DNA of 64,000 nucleotides, taken from positions 36,260-100,259 of the forward strand of contig JANSYR010000012.1 in NCBI GenBank assembly GCA_024742285.1. The letters run 5' to 3'. Under the pieces are notes generated by a model. It was not told where the DNA came from, made no database searches, and was given only the letters and a program-made list of their open reading frames with translations. Positions 34,366 through 34,552 of the stretch are shown here, in pieces. This DNA comes from a bacterium. Lineage in GTDB: Bacteria; Myxococcota_A; UBA9160; UBA4427. How positions within the stretch are numbered: the first letter of the stretch is position 1; each line of letters begins with the position of its first letter. The translations under genes were made by a program, and so were the position numbers.

Positions 34366-34454
34366 CGCCTGGTCGGGACTTCCGCAGCGAACCCAGCTCG
34401 GTCGCCATGCCGCAATAGAAGCCGCCTGGTCGCGACGTCTGCGACGAACCCAGC
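34366..34454. repeat. Two degenerate direct copies (32 bp each, 57 bp apart) of the 3' terminal region of the adjacent tRNA-Pro
   Basis: R1 CGCCTGGTCGGGACTTCCGCAGCGAACCCAGC (34366-34397) and R2 CGCCTGGTCGCGACGTCTGCGACGAACCCAGC (34423-34454) against the tRNA-Pro 3' end in the same orientation, TGGTCGGGGCGACTGGATTTGAACCAGC. Confidence 0.5.
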
Positions 34455-34475
34455 AGAATGCGGATATCGCAAAAA

Positions 34476-34552
34476 TGGTCGGGGCGACTGGATTTGAACC
34501 AGCGACCTCTTCGTCCCGAACGAAGCGCGCTACCAAACTGCGCCACGCCCCG
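34476..34552 (-). tRNA. tRNA-Pro (anticodon CGG), CCA encoded
   Basis: Full cloverleaf folded by hand: acceptor CGGGGCG/CGCCCCG, D-stem GCGC, anticodon stem CTTCG/CGAAG with loop ttCGGga, T-arm GCTGG-TTCAAAT-CCAGT, discriminator A, C1:G72 as in bacterial tRNA-Pro. Confidence 0.85.

Follow-up and report, generated by a model that had tools for sequence, protein, structure and literature searches.

In Escherichia coli K-12 (NC_000913), three tandem repeats of 178 bp, which are 95% identical to the reference copy, are located downstream of tyrV, and each 178-bp repeat of the tyrT/tyrV locus contains the last 19 nt of tRNA-Tyr as an exact copy, a segment that occurs six times in the locus. Bacterial intergenic VNTRs or minisatellites, e.g. 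those of the mycobacterial MIRU type, have a period of tens of bp and a copy number that varies between strains. According to the accretion model, decayed integrative elements (CIMEs) accumulate at tRNA genes (PMC5704250).

Here, we describe a short tandem array that directly follows the tRNA-Pro(CGG) gene in a Myxococcota genome and in related metagenome-assembled genomes (MAGs). Among the described systems, the 178-bp repeats of E. coli tyrT/tyrV (rttR/tpr region) are the closest precedent. At both loci, a tRNA gene is directly followed by repeats in head-to-tail order, in which a 3'-terminal segment of the tRNA is repeated in register together with trailer sequence. However, the repeat measures 178 bp in E. 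coli and about 57 bp here, and the tRNA-derived piece is exact in E. coli (19/19), whereas it comprises 28 nt at about 64-75% identity here. Moreover, the RttR sRNA and the Tpr protein are annotated in E. coli, whereas the sequence of the array described here indicates no product. Sequence homology between the two loci is not expected.

With VNTRs and minisatellites the array shares a period of tens of bp, an intergenic location and a copy number of 0-4 among close relatives; unlike MIRU-type VNTRs, its unit is derived from the adjacent tRNA and is restricted to one locus instead of being dispersed around the genome. It also resembles att scars and CIMEs in that copies of the tRNA 3' end lie downstream of the tRNA in the same orientation, that their extent equals that of the repeats which bound islands at this tRNA in two related loci (L014 and L007) and that the locus is an insertion hot spot. 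Unlike att scars, however, the copies have no element DNA between them but trailer-like spacers of 21-29 nt, they include a perfect tandem duplication, and they form one family with conserved features of its own rather than a set of independently displaced tRNA ends. The accretion model (PMC5704250) is a description of the neighbourhood and not of the array itself.

Results

Two repeats in the trailer of tRNA-Pro(CGG)

The window, i.e. the whole 64-kb stretch of DNA that was analysed, contains the tRNA-Pro(CGG) gene at 34476-34552 on the minus strand (ARAGORN; Rfam tRNA, 65.7 bits). The 3' end of the tRNA lies at the low coordinate, and 34300-34475 represents the downstream trailer region. The gene order in the window is GST (minus), tRNA-His (plus), a 75-nt tRNA-Leu(CAG) (plus), SPFH/Band_7 (plus), a PcfJ-like gene (plus), two repeat units, tRNA-Pro (minus), rpe (minus) and rsmB (minus). 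A promoter-like site was identified 13 nt upstream of tRNA-Pro (34565-34592, minus strand; TTGAGG, 16 nt, TATACT) by a consensus scan only, which returned no such match in shuffled sequences. Read on the tRNA strand, tRNA-Pro ends with ...GCTGGTTCAAATCCAGTCGCCCCGACCA and is followed by its own T-rich trailer of 21 nt, TTTTTGCGATATCCGCATTCT (34455-34475, minus strand), which is homologous to the trailer-like part of the spacers between the units. This trailer is 78% identical to that of the related locus L003, and a TTTGCGG-type (TTTTGCG-type) trailer also follows tRNA-Pro in the relatives L009 and L157, which harbor no units.

A repeat finder identified two direct repeats of 35 nt at 34363-34397 and 34420-34454, which are 83% identical and have a start-to-start distance of 57. 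They lie on the strand of the tRNA and follow the end of tRNA-Pro(CGG) at distances of 21 and 78 nt. An earlier note, made from the sequence of the window, had described two 32-bp repeats of about 80% identity at a spacing of 57 bp; the spacing was confirmed, while length and identity had to be corrected to the values given above. A degenerate pattern of the repeat matched at only these two sites in the 64-kb window, with 0 matches expected by chance. TRF made no call for the two-copy array in the window itself.

The proximal unit, R2 (34421-34454, minus strand), consists of a 28-nt core, GCTGGGTTCGTCGCAGACGTCGCGACCA (34427-34454), followed by GGCGGC; it was recovered by nhmmer with an E value of 1.6e-7 and is 89% identical to the units u2/u3 of L003 and 86% identical to u3 of L008. 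The inter-unit spacer GGCGGC-TTCTATTGCGGCATGGCGACCGA (34398-34426, minus strand) comprises a GGCGRC box and a subsequent trailer-like copy, so that the tRNA strand reads GGCGGCTTCTATTGCGGCATGGCGACCGA between the cores of R2 and R1. It shows 65-68% identity to the internal spacers of L003 and equals the spacer of L161 at 26/29 positions, according to a hand count on the module sequences. The distal unit, R1 (34364-34397, minus strand; nhmmer E = 1.1e-6), has the 28-nt core GCTGGGTTCGCTGCGGAAGTCCCGACCA (34370-34397) followed by GGCGAC. It differs from u2/u3 of L161 at one of 28 positions (hand count) and is orthologous by position to the single unit of L017. Measured from the GCTGG of tRNA-Pro, R2 has a spacing of 49 nt, and R1 is spaced 57 nt from R2.

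Distal to the array, a flank at 34323-34363 (minus strand; TCGGGTGGTCGTCC...CTGCCTCCCGG) is conserved in L017, L003, L161 and L162; on the tRNA strand, the core of R1 is followed by GGCGACTCGGGTGG.... Positions 6984-7039 of L017 were aligned by blastn to window positions 34378-34323, which cover this flank, and the junction sequences were compared as well.

Resemblance of the units to the tRNA-Pro 3' end

The sequence that the units resemble is the last 28 nt of tRNA-Pro (34476-34503, minus strand), which include the T-arm, the 3' strand of the acceptor stem and CCA. Both 28-nt cores match these nucleotides, from the 5' strand of the T-stem to CCA, at 18/28 positions without gaps, and among the roughly 128,000 positions on both strands of the whole window, a score of at least 18 was reached at just 3 others. 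Compared with 5000 shuffles, the global alignments gave z values of 5.45 for R2 and 4.66 for R1, and no shuffled sequence equalled the observed score. The similarity is concentrated in GCTGG..TTC and (CAG.CG.)CCCGACCA. It is also specific for tRNA-Pro: the unit consensus scored 13-15 against the tRNA-Pro 3' ends of the clade and at most 5 against 14 other tRNA 3' ends, which included the tRNA-His of the window and unrelated tRNA-Pro genes.

The unit consensus is nearer to tRNA-Pro than most of the single units. In the 3' part, ...CAGGCGTCCCGACCA of the consensus corresponds to ...CAGTCGCCCCGACCA of the tRNA at 13/15 positions (hand count), which fits descent from the tRNA. The proposal that the repeats resemble the T-arm and the acceptor 3' end of the tRNA in the same orientation is thus upheld, and the units exceed shuffled controls, which the earlier note had named as a possible point of failure. 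The units are indeed derived from the 3' end of tRNA-Pro.

A second tRNA-Pro gene, with the anticodon TGG, was observed in L012 (7389-7465), where it follows tRNA-Pro(CGG) at a distance of about 500 nt. Two differences are present in its 28 terminal nt (T-loop TTCGATT), and its score against the unit consensus is equal to that of the best tRNA-Pro(CGG) variant.

Copy number among related loci

The arrangement of rpe followed by tRNA-Pro(CGG) is kept in 15 related loci from Myxococcota MAGs (designated by L numbers), across which the sequence of tRNA-Pro(CGG) is identical or nearly identical. The Rpe protein of the window was also found on Logan contigs from SRR18498041/42, of which SRR18498041 is the source sample, and an overlap of 501 nt with L001 is identical to the window. 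The repeats are present at the same locus in related genomes, where their complete absence would have spoken against the earlier note. Directly after tRNA-Pro(CGG), four units are present in L003 and in L163-L166, three in L161, three and perhaps a degenerate fourth in L008, two in L162 as in the window, and one each in L017 and L004. No unit was found in L157/L159, L167-L172, L175, L177 and more distant relatives. Inside the cluster with at least 90% Rpe identity, the copy number is 0, 1, 2, 3 or 4.

In a tree based on RsmB and Rpe, the array-bearing genomes form one clade, in which members without units (L157, L167 and L175) are nested; L008 is located outside this clade. A profile built from 19 units gave significant matches only at the tRNA-Pro locus in about 397 kb of related sequence, and with this profile no displaced array was found at the far end of the insertion in L157. 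A candidate degenerate unit at 30663-30688 of the window was rejected, since the profile gave no match there at E ≤ 10. When a degenerate unit pattern was applied to metagenomes, at least 120 stretches with a single match were obtained; among the matches listed, no tRNA-Pro 3' end was present in the vicinity, and the sole tRNA seen close to a match was an unrelated tRNA-Ala. To all appearances these are chance matches of a pattern that is too loose, and we read the two matches in viral contigs, which have no tRNA nearby, in the same way.

The repeating module of about 57 bp consists of GGCGRC, a trailer-like stretch of about 21 nt (..TTTGCGGCATSGC..) and the 28-nt unit, and the spacers of 21-29 nt are homologous to one another and to the trailer of tRNA-Pro itself. 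For L161, TRF reported a period of 57 with 2.3 copies at 100% identity, i.e. a perfect 57-bp tandem duplicate, and for L163 a period of 57 with 3.6 copies. An identity of 96% is shared by the adjacent units u2/u3 of L003 and likewise by u1/u2 of L008. In L162, a module of about 83 nt, which includes the distal flank, is duplicated instead.

All units have features in common that are absent from the tRNA: GCTGG is followed by one additional base, TTCG by TCGC, and ACCA by GGCGRC. In the alignment of the 19 units, many of the well-conserved columns deviate from the tRNA; the consensus frequency averages 0.80 over deviating columns and 0.87 over those that agree with the tRNA. Because the units share features that the tRNA lacks, they are one family that goes back to one founder with subsequent local amplification and not to repeated captures of the tRNA end. 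The comparison thereby shows that one copy of the tRNA 3' end founded the family and that it arose once, in an ancestor of this Myxococcota clade.

In L010, which is a more distant relative, an unlike tandem repeat, TTCGCACAGCCGCGCCCC, is present in four copies directly after tRNA-Pro (6849-6925), and this suggests that the tRNA trailer is generally prone to repeat formation.

Insertions at the tRNA-Pro 3' end

Several related loci indicate that the 3' end of tRNA-Pro is used as an integration site. In L020, a gene encoding a tyrosine recombinase (integrase) starts 66 nt after tRNA-Pro; relatives of this integrase were not found in viral contigs. L014 contains a 26-nt copy of the tRNA 3' end, TGGTTCAAATCCAATCGTCTCGACCA, at a distance of 4.8 kb downstream, and L007 a partial copy of 31 nt at 195 nt downstream together with a transposase of the IS91 family, while L009 harbors conflict-system genes of the GTPase type at the tRNA-Pro locus. 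In the pairs L175 and L176 as well as L167 and L173, the Rpe proteins are identical and the sequences differ from the first base after the CCA of tRNA-Pro, which indicates a strain-level insertion or replacement exactly at the tRNA-Pro 3' end. In addition, several contigs stop at or shortly after tRNA-Pro or the array. In this clade, tRNA-Pro is an insertion hot spot.

Two further observations concern DNA that adjoins the tRNA in single relatives. At about 7000-7030 of L007 and 7050-7080 of L009, i.e. about 100 nt after tRNA-Pro, both loci have the motif TGGGGTAGC(A/G)CC.GGGT(A/G)GC in common, which precedes unrelated cargo, the IS91 transposase in L007 and GAP1/double-GTPase genes in L009; the motif may represent the shared end of a related inserted element. 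In L004 (4342-4617), only the 5' half of the single unit, GCCGGATTCGTCG, is canonical, whereas its 3' half, ...CTGCTGACCA, diverges. DNA with an estimated GC content of about 40% adjoins the ACCA of this unit and reaches the end of the contig (JBCCZJ010000441.1), which lies 300 nt after the tRNA, compared with about 68% GC for the genome, and a 30-mer from this low-GC flank had no match in viral contigs. Either recombination has created a junction within the unit of L004, or the assembly is chimeric at this point.

The neighbouring variable segment

Adjoining the array, without being part of it, the window contains a variable segment of about 4.2 kb (30210-34322, plus strand; the low boundary is approximate), which carries tRNA-His, an atypical tRNA-Leu(CAG), the SPFH/Band_7 gene and the PcfJ-like gene. 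The segment is present in the window and in L161, absent from L017 and replaced by 137 nt in L162. Since L161 and L162 encode the same Rpe protein, the indel is recent. The junction on the tRNA-Pro side falls within the conserved flank, about 47 nt past the GGCGAC of the last unit, and does not coincide with a unit. The segment contains no integrase and no GC anomaly, and its two proteins gave no PADLOC match. A core of tRNA-Pro, which the earlier note had proposed to look for at the far boundary near 31080, did not emerge, as nothing above background was detected there.

About 25 nt after tRNA-Leu, on the strand opposite to tRNA-Pro, a fragment resembling a T-arm and acceptor was noticed at 31086-31140 (plus strand; GGGGTTCGACTCCCCACAGCCGG). 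It was rejected as a tRNA-Pro core, as it lacks resemblance to tRNA-Pro, lies on the other strand and received no Rfam call, and it looks like the 3' piece of some other tRNA or of a tmRNA. Bacterial tRNA-Leu is expected to possess a long variable arm. The tRNA-Leu(CAG) of the segment (30986-31060, plus strand; Rfam, 57.4 bits) measures only 75 nt and hence lacks this arm; on reading, position 33 is occupied by G instead of U, the acceptor stem contains a mismatch, and CCA is not encoded. The variable segment may thus carry a pseudogene or a tRNA-like gene of an unusual type.

Discussion

We read the array as a VNTR in the trailer of tRNA-Pro(CGG), which is derived from the 3' end of this tRNA and located at an integration hot spot, and we assign a probability of about 0.65 to this reading. 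The tRNA-end-derived VNTR is genuine and distinct, but belongs to an ordinary class of features. To judge by its sequence, the array behaves as a minisatellite that changes by slippage or unequal crossing-over, and not as a series of independent insertions. After the founding copy of the tRNA-Pro 3' end had arisen once in an ancestor of the clade, replication slippage or unequal homologous recombination between modules would have altered the copy number, so that the window now has 2 units and its close relatives have 0 to 4. As an integration hot spot, the 3' end of tRNA-Pro would have caused repeated remodelling of the zone in which the array lies.

With regard to the origin of the founding copy, a displaced att-type scar of an integrative element and a simple local duplication of the tRNA end with its trailer have roughly even odds. 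The repeats that bound islands span the T-stem to CCA like the unit, and the founding unit could therefore be an old displaced copy of the att type. Some observations do not sit easily with the VNTR reading. GGCGRC is found after every unit but not after the tRNA, so that the module is not a plain copy of the tRNA end and trailer. L008 is located outside the main clade, which means that the history needs several losses or a transfer. Furthermore, the unit of L004 resembles a recombination junction within a unit, and a purely neutral repeat does not predict that the identity of the units exceeds that of 4-fold sites.

The earlier note had interpreted the stacked units as scars of successive integrase insertions. 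Accordingly, each unit would stem from a separate insertion at a tRNA-Pro attB, and the respective element would later have been deleted almost wholly. Such a history would agree with the hot-spot character of tRNA-Pro (the integrase of L020, the repeats of L014 and L007, the strain pairs diverging at the tRNA end), with the extent of the L014 and L007 repeats, which reach from the T-stem through CCA and equal the 28-nt unit, with the unit of L004, which resembles a hybrid junction, and with the documented accretion of decayed elements (CIMEs) at tRNA genes (PMC5704250). Indeed, two features of att scars are seen, since the repeats of the tRNA 3' end have the same orientation and the tRNA serves as an integration site in relatives. 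However, element DNA bounded by each repeat was not found, there is no integrase in window positions 30210-34476, and the spacers, which measure only 21-29 nt, show homology among themselves and with the trailer and contain no remnant of an element, so that near-complete deletions leaving equal spacing each time would be required. An independent origin of each unit is also contradicted by the perfect 57-bp tandem duplicate of L161, by the 96% identity of neighbouring units and by the non-tRNA features that all units share, hence one founder. As a model for the growth in copy number, separate insertions are largely refuted, and we consider it very unlikely that they gave rise to the units.

It is conceivable, though unlikely, that the module is a selectively maintained cis element built from the tRNA 3' end. 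Given the convergent arrangement of the genes, the units could act on the tRNA-Pro transcript as tandem weak terminators or as an insulator; alternatively, they could be pseudo-attB landing pads, which capture integrative elements and leave the tRNA undisrupted, or sites for a recombinase or DNA-binding protein. Within the units, the boxes GCYGGRTTCGYCGC and GTCCCGACCAGGCGRC are conserved, whereas variation is seen in the central 5-6 nt and over most of the spacer. The units of the window show up to 89% identity to those of L003 and 79-86% to those of L008, compared with 68-77% and 52-66%, respectively, at 4-fold sites in rpe and rsmB. This excess hints at constraint and is suggestive only, as the units are short (28-34 nt) and the pairs were selected post hoc. 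One unit together with the T-rich spacer scores as terminator-like (GTCGCGACCAGGCGGC followed by TTCTATTG), and the low-GC DNA adjoining the ACCA of the L004 unit, whose 3' half is replaced, provides a hint at the landing-pad version. On the other hand, the terminator hairpin is not kept in units with CCCGACCA, and a search of viral contigs with the unit pattern returned nothing relevant. A structured RNA or a tRNA-like minihelix was rejected as well: the RNAalifold consensus amounts to -1.06 kcal/mol and shows hardly any covariation, folding of the array gave a z value of -0.13 compared with shuffles, and Rfam matches only the three tRNAs at meaningful scores. The copy number ranges from 0 to 4, and the unit-free L157, L167 and L175 within the clade show that the array is dispensable. 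As close relatives lack it, the array most likely has no essential function.

We regard it as hardly conceivable that the likeness to the tRNA is due to chance and that the repeats are a degenerate CRISPR-like array or a repeated coding motif. A repeat length of 28-35 nt and a spacing of 57 nt do lie within the CRISPR range, and the 57-nt period of the window is a multiple of 3 with ORFs crossing the region. Yet the similarity to tRNA-Pro is specific and far above shuffles and the background of the window, the repeats are only 83% identical, their spacers are alike and not unique, and the immediate neighbours are rpe, rsmB, the PcfJ-like gene and SPFH, with no cas gene among them. The lengths of the modules in the relatives range from 48 to 83 nt and are mostly not multiples of 3, in line with the earlier statement that the ATRRL/PTRRL peptides in the translation are an artefact. 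We therefore discarded the coding or repeat-peptide reading, and chance, CRISPR and coding alike are already refuted.

The array represents a strain-level marker for an uncultured clade of marine or sediment Myxococcota, and it probably contributes to assembly breaks at the locus, since several contigs end in or just after it. The locus also calls for caution, in that stacked partial tRNA ends beside a tRNA gene are on their own no evidence of repeated integrase events. If the conserved boxes were functional, the array would join E. coli tyrT as the second known case in which the 3' end of a tRNA is reused as a repeated trailer element, and it might show how secondary attachment sites arise beside integration hot spots at tRNA genes.
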